The notes below the pieces were generated by a model. It searched no databases, was not told the origin of the DNA, and was given only the letters and a program-made list of their open reading frames with translations. A DNA stretch of 64,000 bases from a virus. Its lineage: Duplodnaviria; Caudoviricetes. The position numbers and the translations under genes were made by a program. The stretch lies in IMG/VR virus record IMGVR_UViG_3300012933_000371, positions 25,989 through 89,988 of that record; one strand, written 5' to 3'. Positions within the stretch are counted from its first letter, which is position 1. Each line of letters begins with the position of its first letter. Below, one piece after another: positions 34,829 to 52,278 of the stretch.

Positions 34829-36273
34829 GCTAATACTGCTCTCATTCTGTTGGCTATTTCTGCCGAGGCTAATTCTCTGATTGACTTAGATATTAGCAGT
34901 TTAGGGTCACGTGATGTTGGCTGACTTTGGCGTCCGCCAGCAGAAAAAGTTGCGTAGGGGTTCTTCATGTACGAATAAAACGCAGTTATCATACCTTCTC
35001 GGCTTTCAGTTAGTCTTTCTACTACCGCAGAATTAGCAAGTCTGCCTGTTCTGTAGTTTAGTACATTACGACTATTGCCGGTACCCATATTTTTCTTTAT
35101 TTGTGCAGCTAAGTTTTGATTAATTAAAACCTGTATAGAAGCTAAGGAAGTAAATCTTCCCGCTAAGTTACGTATAGGCTTTGGCTTGTTAGCTTTTATC
35201 TCTGAACGTATCTTCTTAGCTTGCTGTATAAGTGCTTTATTATTAGACTTTTTAATTGCTACGGGTATCTTTTTGCTAATATTACTGGTTACTTTACCAG
35301 AATAAACTTGCTTAGATTTTTTACCAGTACTAAGCATACTGGCTAAATCTTTAGCTAACATGTCTATAAAAGTAGGAGAACTTTTACTAGTAAGTAACAT
35401 TTTACCTGTACTACTATTGTTGAAAGCTTTCTCAATCTCTGTAGAGTTTGGGGTAAATACTTTTCTAAGTTCTTCGACTACTGCTTTGGAAGCTCTTCCA
35501 GAGGATCTATTAGTTATACTATACTGCATTTCTACTAGATATTTATCTGTAGACTTTGTGTAGTTAACATTGCTGATGTTTTGGTAAACTTCTGTAGGCA
35601 TATTAGCTGAGCGAAGATCGTCTTCCTCTAGCTGTTTAATATATACGTCTAATGCGTGTACTAGGTTTTGTTTTACTTTATCTGATAAAGCGTTTGATCC
35701 CTGTACTTCGTCTTGGAATGCTTTTGTTAGATTAGCAGCAACGGAGATTACGTGCCCTTTATCAAAGAACGTGCCTATTGTAAAGTTAGGCATGGCATCA
35801 ATTTTTTGCCACTCTCTGTTATACTGCGCTTTAGTTAGCGTAGGATCTTGTGCTAATTCTTCTTTTAATCTATCCTTATGTCGCTCTGTTTGCTCGTATA
35901 AGTAGTGATCAATTTCGTCGCTTTTAAAGGCTCTGTTAAGTACTTCTGTAATAGTATCGAAGCCAATACCTTTATAAAGTACCGCATTCTGTCCGTTTAC
36001 TTTTTCAAACGAGCCTTTTATGCCGTCAACTCCAGAATTATCTGCTAGCTTTTGCAGCATTGACATTACGTCAGTTGCGTGTGCGTCTCCTGTAATAGAC
36101 TTAAAAATGTTTGAAACATCTTTAGCAGTAATCAGGAAGTCAGTTTTAGCGGCTCGCTGTTGACTAGATCGTAGTTTATCAACCGTACTACTTACTATAT
36201 TCTTTTCTAGTTTTTGAAACCAGCTTTTGTAAGCTTCTGATTGCAGTGCTTGGCTAAATTCTGCTACACTCAT
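34825..36273 (-). CDS. Tail completion / neck protein
   Basis: C-terminal LNYRTGRLANS...YSYMKNPYATF...RDPKLLISKSIRE motif; T5 p143 position. Confidence 0.65.
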   Translation of the reverse strand: MSVAEFSQALQSEAYKSWFQKLEKNIVSSTVDKLRSSQQRAAKTDFLITAKDVSNIFKSITGDAHATDVMSMLQKLADNSGVDGIKGSFEKVNGQNAVLYKGIGFDTITEVLNRAFKSDEIDHYLYEQTERHKDRLKEELAQDPTLTKAQYNREWQKIDAMPNFTIGTFFDKGHVISVAANLTKAFQDEVQGSNALSDKVKQNLVHALDVYIKQLEEDDLRSANMPTEVYQNISNVNYTKSTDKYLVEMQYSITNRSSGRASKAVVEELRKVFTPNSTEIEKAFNNSSTGKMLLTSKSSPTFIDMLAKDLASMLSTGKKSKQVYSGKVTSNISKKIPVAIKKSNNKALIQQAKKIRSEIKANKPKPIRNLAGRFTSLASIQVLINQNLAAQIKKNMGTGNSRNVLNYRTGRLANSAVVERLTESREGMITAFYSYMKNPYATFSAGGRQSQPTSRDPKLLISKSIRELASAEIANRMRAVLA

Positions 36274-43587: not shown

Positions 43588-43911
43588 ATGACTGCAAAGA
43601 CTGTAAACTATACGGCAGACCAAGCCGCAAAAATGGTAGCTGACTATTTGGCTGGCGTGACTGTTGAAGCTATCGCGGCTGAGATGGGTAAATCTGCTCG
43701 CTCTGTTGTTGCTAAACTTTCACGCGAGAAGGTTTATAAGGCTAAGACTTATCAGACTAAGACAGGTGAAGCCGTGATTAAAAAAGATGCACACGCTGAT
43801 TTTATCGGCGAAGCATTGGGCTTAACTGAGGCTGATACCGATTCGCTGACTAAGGCCAACAAGGTAGCATTGGCAAAGATTGCCGATTTTATCAAGGCTG
43901 AAAAGAGCTAA
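43588..43911 (+). CDS. T5 A2-like DNA-binding protein, paralogue 1
   Basis: MTAKTVNYT...Y..G...IA..MGKSARSVVAKLSRE.VY pattern resembles my recollection of T5 A2; HTH-like. Confidence 0.6.
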   Translation: MTAKTVNYTADQAAKMVADYLAGVTVEAIAAEMGKSARSVVAKLSREKVYKAKTYQTKTGEAVIKKDAHADFIGEALGLTEADTDSLTKANKVALAKIADFIKAEKS

Positions 43912-45859: not shown

Positions 45860-46336
45860 ATGGCTAAAATTAACCGCGTTGCAATTTACGACATGGACGG
45901 CACGATTGTAGATTCAAGCCACCGCTATCGCACAATTACTGATGAAAATGGCGAGCGTATAGATTTGGATTTTTGGCGAGAAAATGAATATCGCGCAATG
46001 GATGACGGATTGTTGCCCATGTTTTCACAATATGAAAAAGATTTGGCTGACGAAAATTGTTATACAATTATTGCAACTGCGCGGGTAATGAACGAACCAG
46101 ATTGGCAATTCGTAAACGAAATTTTAGGCGCTCCAGATTATTTTATTTCTCGCCCTGCGGGTTCTGATATTTCAGGCAAAACGCTAAAAATTAATGGCCT
46201 TGCAAAATTCTTTAATCTGGTAACTTTCAAAGATGCTGATTTTGTTTTTTACGAAGATAATATTAGCTATCTAAAAGCCGTTTGCGATAGGTTTAATATT
46301 CGCGGGGTTTATATCCCAAGCGTTCAAGGCCATTAA
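45860..46336 (+). CDS. HAD-superfamily phosphatase (PNK 3'-phosphatase / nucleotidase-like)
   Basis: YDMDGT, IATAR, K and YEDN: HAD motifs I-IV. Confidence 0.8.
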   Translation: MAKINRVAIYDMDGTIVDSSHRYRTITDENGERIDLDFWRENEYRAMDDGLLPMFSQYEKDLADENCYTIIATARVMNEPDWQFVNEILGAPDYFISRPAGSDISGKTLKINGLAKFFNLVTFKDADFVFYEDNISYLKAVCDRFNIRGVYIPSVQGH

Positions 46337-46568: not shown

Positions 46569-47267
46569 ATGGCTAAAAAACAATTCTTTGCGATTCTCGA
46601 CACTGAAACAACTATTGCCGATACTGTGGCCGATTTTGCCATTGTGATTTGTGATCGTGATGGCAAAATTTATAATCAATGCGCGGTATTGGTAAAAGAT
46701 CAATTTGACGCGCACGAATTATTTTATGATAAAAATGCCAAGGGTCTTTGGTCTTTGCAATATGCAAAGGACAAACGCGCAAAATACAACGATATGCTTA
46801 ATTCTGGTTCTAGAATGTTAGCTTCTGTTTCTGCAATCAATAACTGGATTAATCAAGCCATTGGCAAGTATAACCCAACTTTGACCGCTTACAATTTGGC
46901 TTTTGATAAATCAAAATGTGCAAACACAGGTATTACATTGGACGGCTTTTCTGATAACTTTTGTTTGTGGCAAGCGGCTGTTGGCAATATCTGCAACACT
47001 AAAAAATTCAAGCAATTTTGCCTAGAAAATCATGCGTTCAATGCCCCTACTGAATTTGGCAATATGACTTTTAAAACAAACGCCGAGATTGTTTGCGGGT
47101 TTATTAATGGCGGGTTTGTTGAAGAACCGCATACCGCGCTCGAAGATGCGCGCGATTTTGAATTGCCGATTTTGCGCGAGATTATCAAAAAACGCGATTG
47201 GAAACAAAAGGTAACACCTTATAACTGGCGCGAATTTCAAACCCGTGACCATTTCCAAGCCAAGTAA
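46569..47267 (+). CDS. DEDDh (DnaQ-like) 3'-5' exonuclease
   Basis: LDTETT (ExoI), AYNLAFD (ExoII), HTALED (ExoIII). Confidence 0.85.
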   Translation: MAKKQFFAILDTETTIADTVADFAIVICDRDGKIYNQCAVLVKDQFDAHELFYDKNAKGLWSLQYAKDKRAKYNDMLNSGSRMLASVSAINNWINQAIGKYNPTLTAYNLAFDKSKCANTGITLDGFSDNFCLWQAAVGNICNTKKFKQFCLENHAFNAPTEFGNMTFKTNAEIVCGFINGGFVEEPHTALEDARDFELPILREIIKKRDWKQKVTPYNWREFQTRDHFQAK

Positions 47268-48651: not shown

Positions 48652-48978
48652 ATGACTGCAAAAACTGTAAACTACACCGCCGAGCAAACTGCTAAGATTG
48701 TGGCCGATTATTTGGCTGGCGTGACTGTCGAAGCCTTGGCCGCTGAATTGGGAAAATCAGCCCGTTCGGTTGTTGCGAAATTGTCACGCGAAGGCGTATA
48801 TAAGGCAAAAGTATACAAAACCAAAACTGGCGCGGCTGTGGTCAAAAAAGATGCTCACGCCGATGCAATCGGCGCTATTTTGCAATTGAGCGAAAATGAA
48901 ATCGAAAGTTTGACAAAAGCAAATAAAACTGCGCTGGAAAAGATTTTTTCAGCACTTGCAAATTCTAAGCCAGTTTAA
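48652..48978 (+). CDS. T5 A2-like protein, paralogue 2
   Basis: Highly similar to 43588-43911; own promoter TTGAAA-17-TATAAT. Confidence 0.6.
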   Translation: MTAKTVNYTAEQTAKIVADYLAGVTVEALAAELGKSARSVVAKLSREGVYKAKVYKTKTGAAVVKKDAHADAIGAILQLSENEIESLTKANKTALEKIFSALANSKPV

Positions 48979-48992
48979 GCCGAAAGGCTTAC

Positions 48993-49022
48993 AAAGCCCC
49001 TCAATTTCGAGGGGCTTTTTTT
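48993..49022 (+). terminator. Intrinsic terminator
   Basis: AAGCCCCTC-AATTTC-GAGGGGCTT followed by a T run. Confidence 0.85.
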
Positions 49023-49315: not shown

Positions 49316-49447
49316 TGCGCCAGTGGCAAAGCAACAAGTGCAAATTCAACGACGTGCCGTGCGCCAGTGGCTGGTCAAGTGCAAATTCTAGTATGTATAG
49401 GCCGCAGAGCCTGGCAAGTGCAAAAATTTACTGTTGAGTGCAAATTC
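49316..49447 (+). repeat. Four AGTGCAAA direct repeats plus two GCGCCAGTGG
   Basis: Cores at 49337, 49378, 49417 and 49437. Confidence 0.75.
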
Positions 49448-49491
49448 AAAAAGTTTTATAATTGTTTTACAAAAGCAGCAAAGGAACTGAA

Positions 49492-49626
49492 ATGACAGAA
49501 CATGAATTTTATCAACAAATTCAGTTGGAGTGGTTCTGTGAATTTGTGAGTGCAGAACTATCCAAAAATCCTCAAGATGTCAACACTCACCGCGAATTTT
49601 TTGAATTTGACGACGTTCCCTTCTAA
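49492..49626 (+). CDS. 44-aa acidic miniprotein ending FDDVPF (SSB C-terminal tip-like)
   Basis: Promoter TTGAGT-17-TATAAT (49434-49462), SD AAGGA, MTEHEFYQQIQLEWFCEFVSAELSKNPQDVNTHREFFEFDDVPF. Confidence 0.7.
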   Translation: MTEHEFYQQIQLEWFCEFVSAELSKNPQDVNTHREFFEFDDVPF

Positions 49627-49671
49627 TGTTACAATAGAATCTTAAACAGCGCAGAAACCAACAAAGGACAT

Positions 49672-49989
49672 ATGATGACTAAAGAAACCAAAACAGTAAA
49701 CTACACTCCAGAACAAACTAAGGCAATTGTGGAGGCATACCAGGCAGGTGCTAGCGTGGAAACTATTGCCAAGGAAATGCAAAAATCCACTCGAAGCATT
49801 GTTGCTAAGCTGGCTCGTGAAGGTGTGTACCAAGCCAAATCTAAAGCCAAGGGCACTCAAGCTCCACGCAAATCCGAGTTGATTACTCAAATTGCTCACA
49901 GCATCGGCACTAACGAAGAGTTGATCGAGTCGCTTGAGAAAGCTACCCGCGAAGCTTTGGAGCTGATTGCAAAGGCTGTTAAACAGTAA
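49672..49989 (+). CDS. T5 A2-like protein, paralogue 3
   Basis: VNYTPEQT...Y.AG..VE.IA...KS.RSIVAKL.REGVY; promoter TTGACG-17-TACAAT (49607-49635). Confidence 0.6.
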   Translation: MMTKETKTVNYTPEQTKAIVEAYQAGASVETIAKEMQKSTRSIVAKLAREGVYQAKSKAKGTQAPRKSELITQIAHSIGTNEELIESLEKATREALELIAKAVKQ

Positions 49990-50014
49990 CAGTTTAGGGT
50001 CAGAAAAAATAAAC

Positions 50015-50043
50015 TTGCTCTGACCCTCTTTTTGCGATATAAT
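50015..50043 (+). promoter_or_regulatory. sigma70 promoter of the long ncRNA
   Basis: TTGCTC-17-TATAAT, -35 embedded in the AGGGTCAGA/TCTGACCCT hairpin. Confidence 0.75.
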
Positions 50044-50270
50044 TATTACTTAGAAAACGAAATAACAACACTGGGACAGCCTGCCACGCTAACTAATTTA
50101 ATCTTGAATACGCAAGCTGTCCCATGTTATAATAATATATCTACTCAGCAAACAGATTACTCAACGAGTCTGTTTGGTAAGTAGTCTGTTTTTGGTGTTA
50201 TGAGCCCAGCCATATATAGCTGGATAACAACTTAATGGTGACCGAAATCTCTAGTCACCGCCTCCCCTAC

Positions 50271-50369
50271 TCCTCTGATGAGCTTATGAAATTTAAGCGA
50301 AACCCAAGCCTTCGTGGCAAGTGTGCGAGCGTCTCCCACCGTTCCACTTGCTACACCTTAGGGTCAGGA
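50271..50369 (+). ncRNA. Type I hammerhead ribozyme
   Basis: CUGAUGA 50275-50281; stem II GCUUA/UAAGC; GAAA 50299-50302; stem III CCC-AAG/CUU-A-GGG extended by GUGGCAAGUG/CACUUGCUAC; GUC ending at 50365; stem I UCCU/AGGA. Confidence 0.8.
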
Positions 50370-50700
50370 CGAAATCCCTAGCGCGTACCACTTGCTGGTG
50401 TTAGGTAAAGAGTAACTCCTAGGTAGCCTACCCTATACCTAAGGCCCCGCTCCGCTATGATCGGGTCACGACTAAACTAGAAATGACCCTAAACTGTGGA
50501 GGGTGCAATAATATATCCAGTCGACTCAGGTTTGCAAAGTCGTTAAGTGTGAGCGCATTCAAGATCCTCCTACTCAGCTAAATCCTTTTATTAACCAAAA
50601 CCAAAGGTAACGCAGTTTAGGATCAGGCAATAAGAGTCCAAGTTGGTTACTTGGCAGTAAGGCTCCTGATTTGGAATAAAAACTTAGTGACGACTAGTTC

Positions 50701-50740
50701 AAAAGCCCCTTCATCCGCAAGATGTTGGGGCTTTTGTTTT
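50701..50740. terminator. Bidirectional intrinsic terminator
   Basis: AAAAGCCCC...CATC-CGCAA-GATG...GGGGCTTTT GTTTT. Confidence 0.8.
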
Positions 50741-50758
50741 GCCTATACGCTCTGCGCC

Positions 50759-50787
50759 ATTTTACCATAGTGCGACAGCAATGTCAA
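50759..50787 (-). promoter_or_regulatory. Leftward sigma70 promoter followed by GGCGC
   Basis: Minus strand TTGACA-17-TAAAAT-GGCGC, firing into the 50701 terminator. Confidence 0.7.
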
Positions 50788-50899
50788 GTGAGTTTTCTAC
50801 GACTTCTGACCCTAAACCGCATAAACTTGGAGAACCTCAAGCACCCACACGCGCTTGACCCTAAACTTGGCCAGTTGACGCCAGAGGCGTCCAATTTGC

Positions 50900-50934
50900 C
50901 CCCACAAAGTACCCACGTAAAAAAGCCCGAATAT
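50900..50934 (-). terminator. Intrinsic terminator
   Basis: AAAAAAGCCCGA...TCGGGCTTTT downstream of A2-like paralogue 4 (coordinates approximate). Confidence 0.55.
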
Positions 50935-50980
50935 CCTGCGATATCGGGCTTTTTGTCGAATTAACTCAAATTATGTCGAA

Positions 50981-51301
50981 TTAATTCAATTTAGGGTCAG
51001 ATTTGGACTCCAAATTCTGTTCGATCATTAACAAGACCTGTTTATTGACCTTTTCTAGGCTTTCGAGTAGCTCTAGGTTGCATTGTAGCAATTCTGCAAT
51101 CCGTTCAATGTGTTCTGACTTTTTTGTTGGCACCTCACCGCGTTTGTTGAGGTACTGCTTTTTTTGGTAGACACCCAGTGAGCTGAGCTTGGCAATAATG
51201 CTGCGTTCTGGCACCTGGAACTGTTGAGCTAGTGCTTGGACGGTCACACCGGCTTGATAGTCTGCGATCAACTGTTTGGTAGATTCATTTGTGTATTTCA
51301 T
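50981..51301 (-). CDS. T5 A2-like protein, paralogue 4
   Basis: MKYTNEST...ADYQAGVTV.ALA.....ERSIIAKLSSLGVY...RGE...KK.EH.E.IA..L......LESLEK. Confidence 0.6.
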   Translation of the reverse strand: MKYTNESTKQLIADYQAGVTVQALAQQFQVPERSIIAKLSSLGVYQKKQYLNKRGEVPTKKSEHIERIAELLQCNLELLESLEKVNKQVLLMIEQNLESKSDPKLN

Positions 51302-51303
51302 GA

Positions 51304-52278
51304 TTAAATCTCCCAAGGTAAGTCTGAACCATCGCTTTTTGATACATACTTATTTTGAGCAGTTTGGGGTCTAAACAAATCTGTAACAATTAGAGGTGCT
51401 GGCATAGAATCCCAACTCTCAGGATCTAAAACCATATACGGAGTACGATTACTTGGGTGTGCACACCAAATTTGGGAATACATTACTTGAGCTAAGTGTG
51501 GTACTGCTTGTAAACATCCGCCTTTTGTAGACCATAATTTAAAACTACTTTGTGGATTACGGCTTTCACCCCTTTTAGGGCCACTTTGATAAATTAACCC
51601 TAATTCACGAGCTTTTAAAATATCTTCTCGTGTATAGTTGCCTTCATGAAGCATTGCTTCACATAAACTATCGTTGACTACCCACTTTAGGGTCTTTCGA
51701 TCCCAACGTGAATATGGAATTTTGTGGTGCAGTTTATAAGCATAAGGAATTAGTGGAACTAAAGCACAAAACTGAGCCCCCTCGCCTTTGTACTGGCTAG
51801 AGAGATATGCACTGCGTGAGTCCAGCATTAAAAACATGTATAGTCCACGTTCCCATTCGCTGTCAAAATCAAAAGCGTGCTTTAAAATCTTGCTGCCATC
51901 AATCTGACCCTCAGCTGTTGAAACTTCCGATAATCGAAATGGTCTATTGGCAATATGTGCCATGATTTGGGGCAGTACTGAAATTAAGAGTGTACTAAGC
52001 TTATATCGTGGAATCCAAATATCTATGGCAGCTTTTTGCCCAGCTTTCTTTCGGACTTCTGCTTTGCTGTACTGTTGAAGCTCTACTTGGTCGCCAAAGC
52101 TGACTTCGCTAGAGGCTTCATGAGTAGCTGCATACCTTTGTTCTAGTGCAGCTACTTCGTTTTCGTATTTGTCTCGTACATGCTGTTCCATACCCTCAAC
52201 TGCAGCGTCTGCAGCGTCTGTATAGATTTCATATAGTTTGTCAAACGGGATTGTTTTAAGTTGTCGGTTAATTATCAT
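51304..52278 (-). CDS. 324-aa protein of unknown function
   Basis: Long ORF, no motif recognised, co-directional with paralogue 4. Confidence 0.8.
   Translation of the reverse strand: MIINRQLKTIPFDKLYEIYTDAADAAVEGMEQHVRDKYENEVAALEQRYAATHEASSEVSFGDQVELQQYSKAEVRKKAGQKAAIDIWIPRYKLSTLLISVLPQIMAHIANRPFRLSEVSTAEGQIDGSKILKHAFDFDSEWERGLYMFLMLDSRSAYLSSQYKGEGAQFCALVPLIPYAYKLHHKIPYSRWDRKTLKWVVNDSLCEAMLHEGNYTREDILKARELGLIYQSGPKRGESRNPQSSFKLWSTKGGCLQAVPHLAQVMYSQIWCAHPSNRTPYMVLDPESWDSMPAPLIVTDLFRPQTAQNKYVSKSDGSDLPWEI

Follow-up and report, generated by a model that had tools for sequence, protein, structure and literature searches.

A 44-residue miniprotein from the early gene cluster of a T5-like phage carries an SSB-like C-terminal tip

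The locus

The DNA analysed here (the window, 64 kb in length) is the last part of an IMG/VR viral contig, the large terminase of which shares 49% identity with the terminases of Vibrio T5-like phages and of Pectobacterium phage My1. On its plus strand, at positions 49492..49626, lies an open reading frame (ORF) of 44 codons and a stop (ATG at 49492, TAA at 49624-49626), the translation of which ends in ...EFFEFDDVPF. Among the 3358 stop-to-stop frames of at least 15 aa in the whole 89,988-bp contig, it is the only one with a [DE][DE]xPF ending. A promoter scan places the sigma-70-type promoter TTGAGT-17-TATAAT at 49434..49462 (+), and the Shine-Dalgarno sequence AAGGA can be read off the DNA at 49481..49485 (+), 6 nt upstream of the ATG; among relatives the -10 box and its surroundings are invariant, and the AAGG core of the Shine-Dalgarno sequence is kept. 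The scan located a terminator (48993-49018) behind the gene upstream of the miniprotein ORF and found none between the ORF and the next gene. The latter, A2b (49672..49989, +), encodes an A2-like HTH DNA-binding protein and follows the miniprotein gene at a distance of about 50 nt in all 29 related loci; it matches phrog_1725 and phrog_323 (D5-like), and its orthologues in loci L002 and L003 carry PF26822 (Phage_T5_A2). The A2b promoter, TTGACG-17-TACAAT (49607..49635, +, promoter scan), reaches into the miniprotein gene, its -35 box lying within codons 39-41 (F39-D40-D41). The first-pass annotation had described an acidic ORF with a promoter and Shine-Dalgarno sequence of its own, the tip EFFEFDDVPF and, as a caveat, the overlap of the F-D-D codons with the TTGACG box of the next gene, and all of this agrees with the sequence. 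Its statement that the ORF is unannotated is correct for this record but does not extend to the relatives, which public gene callers do predict as 'hypothetical protein'.

The non-coding DNA on either side of the gene is itself structured. The near-invariant 5' leader of A2b, CTTAAACAGCGCAGAAACCA (49640..49660, +), contains a core, CAGCGCAGAAACCA, that is the same in nearly all loci (one substitution, in L013), is flanked by variable bases and has a single copy in the window; this core probably acts as a regulatory element at the RNA or DNA level. In the ORF-free gap upstream of the miniprotein gene, three direct AGTGCAAATTC repeats (49337..49447, +) are not more numerous than expected by chance (3 versus 1.98) but are clustered, with the third overlapping the -35 box of the miniprotein promoter, and they may represent candidate operator sites. 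A search of Rfam returned nothing in the gaps flanking the miniprotein gene.

The gene belongs to a cluster in which small genes on the plus strand have sigma-70-type promoters. Across the 29 loci the order dmp, exo, PQ, SprT, TM, A2a, ORF-free gap, miniprotein, A2b, second gap, A2c (-) and p324 (-) is well kept, with local rearrangements, missing genes and short contigs. The conserved cluster includes a homologue of the T5 pre-early gene dmp, a HAD 5'-deoxynucleotidase (45860..46336, +; 36% identity, E 8.7e-12), a PQ-loop protein, an SprT-like protein and a 232-aa neighbour (46569-47267) whose D-T-E-T and H-x4-D motifs hint at a DEDDh exonuclease. The 232-aa protein is co-conserved in 27 of the 29 loci and weakly matches a polymerase-exonuclease PHROG; it found no match in Pfam, NCBIfam or the PDB, and its AF2 model has a pLDDT of 35. 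Within 8 kb the phage encodes four HTH paralogues of the T5 A2/D5 type, each about 105 aa long (43588-43911, +; 48652-48978, +; 49672-49989, +; 50981-51316, -), and the arrangement of A2a, A2b and A2c around the miniprotein gene recurs wherever a related locus is long enough. BLAST searches of the contig with T5 A1 and A2 gave no match for either. Of the T5-type pre-early set, this incomplete contig shows the dmp homologue, A2 at the family level and repeat-rich ORF-free gaps; A1 was not found in it.

In T5, A1 and A2 are needed for second-step transfer, and the FST DNA includes long stretches of untranslated repeats (bioRxiv 10.1101/866236). The ORF-free gap between A2b and A2c (49991-50999) holds six copies, in both orientations, of the 12-mer AGTTTAGGGTCA, which is present 12 times in the window versus 0.45 expected by chance (further sites at 34898, 53009, 53929, 60198, 60851 and 62058); by analogy with the T5 repeats, the array may consist of putative binding sites for the A2-like HTH proteins. 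DnaA boxes form no array and are not enriched. On the minus strand, a perfect consensus promoter (TTGACA-18-TATAAT with TG, 49102-49073) points leftward into the A2a terminator region with no ORF behind it, and may drive an antisense or small RNA.

The T5-type replication module of the phage falls outside the window, in another part of the contig some 40 kb from the miniprotein gene, and encodes a split NAD ligase, a D5-like regulator, a DnaB-like helicase, a primase, a PolA-type polymerase, a second helicase, SbcCD, RusA, a flap exonuclease, a dUTPase and RNR. Nowhere does the contig encode an SSB of the PF00436 family. The phage's own SSB-like protein is a phrog_1607 member of 214 aa (L035:11222-11866, outside the window) without a Pfam match, and its acidic tail ends ...SDSEKEAVKDLE (...KDLE). 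The lack of a Pro-Phe tip on this protein suggests a replisome with no obvious use of its own for the motif.

A family of miniproteins

A word-based search returned one 44-aa homologue with 80% identity, and the A2-like neighbour led to two far more divergent homologues of the same length. A profile scan of IMG/VR yielded 25 loci, and a HMMER search of 1.84 billion protein representatives yielded 28 clusters at 50% identity with lengths of 39-101 aa, in which the entries above the usual length are start-codon miscalls that read through the promoter. Including the cluster members brings the family to 88 distinct sequences, of which 72 have a length of exactly 44 aa, and the gene is carried by 29 related loci. 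The ORF is a real gene, since its promoter, Shine-Dalgarno sequence and length are kept across these loci and sequences and its overall pN/pS is 0.46 (here and below from pooled pairwise Nei-Gojobori counts, which are not phylogenetically independent).

The family has no name in public resources. Relatives are listed as 'hypothetical protein', apart from a single GNAT label that is automatic and evidently spurious. The miniprotein gave no match in Pfam, PHROG or NCBIfam; a PDB sequence search with the protein and the profile returned chance matches only, and the ESM Atlas only unnamed clusters of 43-44 aa. DNA and protein searches of 50,697 GenBank phages found no relative of the miniprotein ORF or of A2b. 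T5 has neither a homologue nor an analogue, the FST region containing no small ORF that ends acidic-[ILVM]-P-aromatic when searched by hand and by regular expression. The sole match in genome contigs, on a 2.9-kb contig binned into a Saccharibacteria MAG, was judged unreliable as a pointer to the host.

Architecture of the protein

The miniprotein is built from three segments that differ in predicted structure and in the selection acting on them. In the AF2 model, calculated from a 33-sequence alignment, residues 3-23 (49498..49560, +) form an amphipathic alpha-helix with pLDDT above 90, and the remainder is a low-confidence tail (means of 71, 63 and 66 for 10-residue blocks) in which a short turn at residues 28-30 is the sole regular element. 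The helix is under purifying selection (pN/pS of 0.39 for residues 2-23) and conserves F6, Q11, E17 and E22 as well as aromatic residues at 14/15 and at 18; a helical-wheel estimate puts the conserved residues largely on one face. Residues 24-34 (49561..49593, +) form a variable acidic linker of about 11 residues that evolves near neutrality (pN/pS of 0.86). The conserved acidic and aromatic tip, E-F-F-E-F-D-D-V-P-F-COOH, occupies residues 35-44 (49594..49623, +) with a pN/pS of 0.21, so that selection is bipartite, acting on helix and tip and sparing the linker between them. The family mean net charge is about -10 over 44 residues, of which 20% are aromatic. A predicted helix and unstructured tail combined with a near-neutral linker are characteristic of proteins in which a flexible spacer connects a small binding module to a short linear motif at the terminus. 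A few family members depart from this plan: L029 (3001-3123), P0018, P0012, P0021 and P0028 have lost the tip or acquired a C-terminal extension and retain the helix, by frame change or truncation in the first four. The helix may work without the tip, or these copies may be decaying.

Resemblance of the tip to the SSB C-terminus

The C-terminus of E. coli SSB (SSB-Ct), MDFDDDIPF, is the docking site of more than 17 partner proteins, and as a free 15-mer it binds RecO with a K of ~1.2e7 per M (PMC7913777). In these contacts a conserved Arg partners the carboxylate of the terminal Phe, and a basic rim partners the acidic residues (PMC5872125). The consensus tip of the miniprotein family, F-E-F-D-D-V-P-F, aligns with MDFDDDIPF on deletion of one Asp, and the family motif can be written Phi-[ED]-Phi-[DE]-D-[VI]-P-[F>Y,W,L]-COOH. 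Counting from the C-terminus, Pro is found at -2 in 81 of the 88 sequences, Val or Ile at -3 in 83, Asp at -4 in 83 and Asp or Glu at -5 in 77. The stop codon directly follows the motif in 83/88, leaving the extreme C-terminus free. The last residue is Phe in 64 sequences, including that of the window, Tyr in nine, Trp in five and Leu in five, and thus aromatic or Leu in 83. SSB keeps its terminal Phe, and across the family the position is hydrophobic but looser.

The tip has in common with bacterial SSB-Ct an acidic stretch followed by [IV]-P-aromatic at the very end of the chain, a nearly invariant Pro at -2, a free terminus, and a Phe and a flexible acidic segment ahead of the motif. Presentation on a disordered linker, as in SSB, is also predicted, both by the low-confidence AF2 tail and by the near-neutral linker. 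The differences are equally clear. Where SSB has three consecutive acidic residues before [IL]-P-F the miniprotein has two (D-D or E-D), then, reading away from the terminus, Phe or Leu and another acidic residue. It bears one tip rather than the four of the SSB tetramer, and does so on a 21-residue helix across 11 linker residues, as opposed to a linker of 56 residues in SSB. It lacks a DNA-binding domain and falls outside PF00436, for 44 aa forming a single helix in the AF2 model cannot accommodate an OB fold of about 110 residues. By its sequence the tip belongs to the SSB-Ct motif class. What the first-pass annotation had seen in the ORF, an SSB-like tip on a protein too short for an OB fold, is upheld, Val at -3 being found in bona fide PF00436 SSBs as well; its further idea, that such a mimic might jam host replication or repair or divert SSB-sensing defences, is conjectural. 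Two other docking motifs were considered for the same residues: the beta-clamp-binding motif (QL[SD]LF type) shows no match by eye, and the FtsZ C-terminal peptide (D-I-P-x-F-L) requires an extra residue between Pro and Phe and does not stand at the very terminus.

Protein-level selection on the tip

The overlap between the tip and the A2b promoter raises the question of which of the two is conserved, and the codons provide an answer. In a tally of 19 distinct 44-codon sequences Pro43 is written with all four codons (CCC 11, CCA 5, CCT 2, CCG 1), position 42 as GTT 17 times and as GTG and ATT once each, and residue 44 as TTT (13), TTC (4), CTT (1) or TAC (1). All three stop codons are used (TAA 11, TGA 6, TAG 2) at a constant position, directly followed by three spacer bases that vary freely. 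The last three codons have a pN/pS of 0.10 at a pS of 0.48, a synonymous rate as high as elsewhere in the gene, and every substitution in the tip is silent or conservative (E/D, F/L/Y/W). Codons 35-41 have a low pS with nearly no synonymous change; there the constraints of promoter (-35 box) and protein are superimposed, and part of the conservation of F-E-F-D-D may be promoter-derived.

Two natural experiments separate the constraints. Variants of 43 aa have lost one tip codon, retaining a single Asp, and have gained 3 nt after the stop, which preserves the 17-nt promoter spacing; L029 and P0018 retain the -35 box and have lost the peptide tip through a frame change. Four Pro codons, three stops at one position and a pN/pS of 0.10 at normal pS indicate that the tip is selected as protein, and not just as an overlapping -35 box. 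The first-pass annotation had named a tip unconserved at the protein level as grounds for giving up its proposal, and the tip is conserved at that level despite the promoter overlap.

The same tip on other phage proteins

We surveyed 78 viral ORFs ending in DDDIPF and 78 ending in DDDVPF-TAA (IMG/VR loci L037-L116 and L156-L235). PF00436 SSBs account for 21 of the former, the remainder including DUF669 proteins, helicases and many ORFs without a family, and for 10 of the latter. As DDDVPF ends bona fide SSBs, Val at -3 is a natural variant of the tip. The other DDDVPF carriers include DUF669, gp32-like, T7-type and Enc34-type SSBs, so that in viral contigs this ending is found on SSBs of at least four folds other than PF00436, along with a Rad52-type annealase, primase-helicases and SF2 helicases; mini-SSBs of 78-93 aa (phrog_18154) are also among the tip carriers. 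These sequences suggest that in phages a DDD[IV]PF terminus marks DNA-replication and recombination proteins of many folds and behaves as a portable module. For prophage DUF669 proteins that end in DDDIPF, mimicry of the host SSB C-terminus has been proposed (PMC13687109). The non-canonical phage and prophage SSBs and replication proteins (DUF669, gp32-like, T7-like, Enc34-like, primase-helicases) share this C-terminal module with the miniprotein but differ in having a DNA-binding or enzymatic domain, the tip recruiting partners to a DNA-bound protein. The miniprotein has no such domain.

The survey also revealed small tip carriers without an OB fold. L076 is a singleton without a DNA-binding domain, and phrog_1811 is a family of proteins of about 73 aa that spans pelagiphages as well as T4-like and T7-like cyanophages (163 phage records). 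The phrog_1811 members that were read, from five IMG/VR loci and as gp31 of Pelagibacter phage HTVC033P (73 aa, L273:4001-4222, labelled 'hypothetical protein'), end in DDDIPF (for example L041:2622-2846 (-), L050:1279-1497 (-) and L111:4580-4798 (+)). Many cyanophage matches stop before the tip, which may not be universal in these phages. Like the miniprotein, phrog_1811 proteins are small and without a Pfam domain or an SSB-type PHROG; they differ in being unrelated in sequence and longer, in their three-Asp tip and, for the HTVC033P copy, in lying close to the DNA polymerase region and not within an early cluster of the T5 type.

In the full-text literature, for the journals that were covered, SSB tips are described only on DNA-binding proteins and a free-standing tip miniprotein is not. 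The present case thus appears to be a known docking motif in a new, domain-less carrier.

A possible function in host takeover

Since the last residues of the miniprotein copy the docking tip of SSB, the protein probably plugs into, or blocks, the network of SSB partners. Our preferred reading, to which we give somewhat less than an even chance, is that the miniprotein is a binder in two parts, with the tip seated in the SSB-Ct pocket of a protein that maintains the genome of the host or, less likely, of the phage. The tip would put its terminal aromatic side chain and free carboxylate into this pocket, and the N-terminal helix would make a second contact that gives specificity. During host takeover by the T5-like phage, the miniprotein would in this manner uncouple or redirect one or a few of the host's SSB-interacting proteins, for which ExoI, RecJ, RecQ, PriA, Pol III chi, Ung and DnaG are candidates, acting as an inhibitor or an adaptor. 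The conserved helix suggests a specific partner rather than generic competition. The docking in the pocket, the choice of a host over a phage target and the inhibitory outcome are inferred; a host client, inhibited or re-targeted during takeover, is favoured because the gene sits in the early dmp/A2 cluster and far from the replication module, because the SSB-like protein of the phage lacks a Pro-Phe tip, and because the penultimate Pro is of the bacterial type. Some features sit less comfortably with a mimic of host SSB: two acidic residues precede V-P-F where the SSB tip has three, 19 of the 88 sequences end in Tyr, Trp or Leu at a position where SSB keeps Phe, a few tip-less members (L029, P0018, P0012 and P0021) retain the helix, codons 35-41 are also constrained as DNA, and the same tip occurs on phage helicases, primases and annealases, such that by analogy with T7 it may dock on phage proteins.

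This last point leads to the foremost rival. Because the same tip sits on phage replication proteins, a docking partner of the phage's own may, by analogy, be regarded as a live alternative to a host one, with the miniprotein as a regulator or adaptor of phage DNA metabolism. Candidate partners on the contig are the PolA-type polymerase, the DnaB-like and SF2 helicases, the primase, the D15-type flap nuclease, SbcCD and the 232-aa DEDDh-like protein (46569-47267). The phage encodes a full T5-type replisome to dock on, and DDD[IV]PF ends primase-helicases, SF2 helicases, Rad52-type annealases and non-canonical SSBs of other phages. T7 sets a precedent, as the acidic tails of gp2.5 and gp4 dock on T7 DNA polymerase by a terminal Phe. 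These tails resemble the miniprotein tip in being acidic docking peptides with an essential terminal aromatic residue, but they belong to large DNA-binding or helicase proteins and lack the penultimate Pro, a hallmark of bacterial SSB tips that is foreign to T7 and T4 tails. The 232-aa neighbour is attractive for its exonuclease-like motifs, its weak PHROG match and its co-conservation in 27/29 loci, and less so for the pLDDT of 35 and the want of a PDB or NCBIfam match. With the gene about 40 kb away from the replication module, within the early dmp/A2 cluster, and the phage's own SSB-like protein devoid of the motif, we consider a phage-internal client unlikely, if the most serious of the competing explanations.

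It is rather improbable that the miniprotein is instead an adaptor for its genomic neighbours, the helix binding an A2 paralogue seated on the gap repeats and the tip bringing in a host SSB-interacting enzyme (a helicase, primase or nuclease), which might serve second-step DNA transfer, end processing or the initiation of replication, for example. A2b is always adjacent, at about 50 nt and with no terminator in between, four A2 paralogues and repeat-rich ORF-free gaps on both sides provide a setting, and the role of A1 and A2 in second-step transfer and the FST repeats of T5 (bioRxiv 10.1101/866236) provide a parallel; against this, no A1 homologue and no DnaA boxes were found, and adjacency may simply mirror shared regulation. 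Less probable again is a generic acidic decoy or DNA mimic that acts against restriction or other defences in the manner of Ocr, ArdA or phi29 p56, its likeness to SSB tips being a coincidence. The mean net charge of about -10 over 44 residues, the 20% of aromatic residues and the early promoter would suit such a role. DNA-mimic anti-restriction proteins such as Ocr and ArdA present a folded surface with the charge spacing of B-DNA and are usually larger than 80 aa or dimeric, whereas the AF2 model of the miniprotein, far smaller than known DNA mimics, shows one 21-residue helix and a floppy tail rather than a folded B-DNA-like surface; moreover, charge leaves the selection for V-P-aromatic, the fixed stop and the near-neutral linker unexplained. 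That the ORF encodes no functional protein at all, its conservation being that of promoter or operator DNA of the A2-like gene or of a regulatory leader ORF, accommodates the -35 box in codons 39-41 and the almost invariant DNA of codons 35-41 and the downstream leader, but is hardly tenable given the normal synonymous variation in the last three codons and the helix with the amino acids kept, the fixed position of three different stops with 3 free bases behind, the conserved promoter and Shine-Dalgarno sequence, and the 28 clusters at 50% identity that a protein profile retrieved. What probability remains falls to a helix with another function and a tip that serves something outside these readings.

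Implications

The preferred reading, a two-part binder directed at a host SSB partner, may have a wider counterpart. Free-standing SSB tips, as on the 44-aa family, phrog_1811 and singletons like L076, might form a general and hitherto undescribed class of phage host-takeover factors, a generalisation that we put forward as speculative and on balance doubtful. Unrelated miniproteins without a DNA-binding domain would each carry the host's SSB docking peptide on a small helical handle; the tip would block specific members of the SSB interactome or re-target them to phage DNA, with the choice of client left to the handle.

Bacterial genome maintenance has its hub peptide in SSB-Ct, which serves more than 17 clients and is a target for antibacterial drugs. 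If the proposed function is correct, the miniprotein would be the first case in a phage of pure SSB-tip mimicry without a DNA-binding domain, and would reveal the client whose targeting pays off most during takeover, at the same time offering a ready two-part inhibitor scaffold of handle and tip with which the contacts of SSB with single clients could be dissected or blocked. It would also give a widespread metagenomic gene family a testable function, and the survey suggests that the tip is a portable module employed on many phage proteins.
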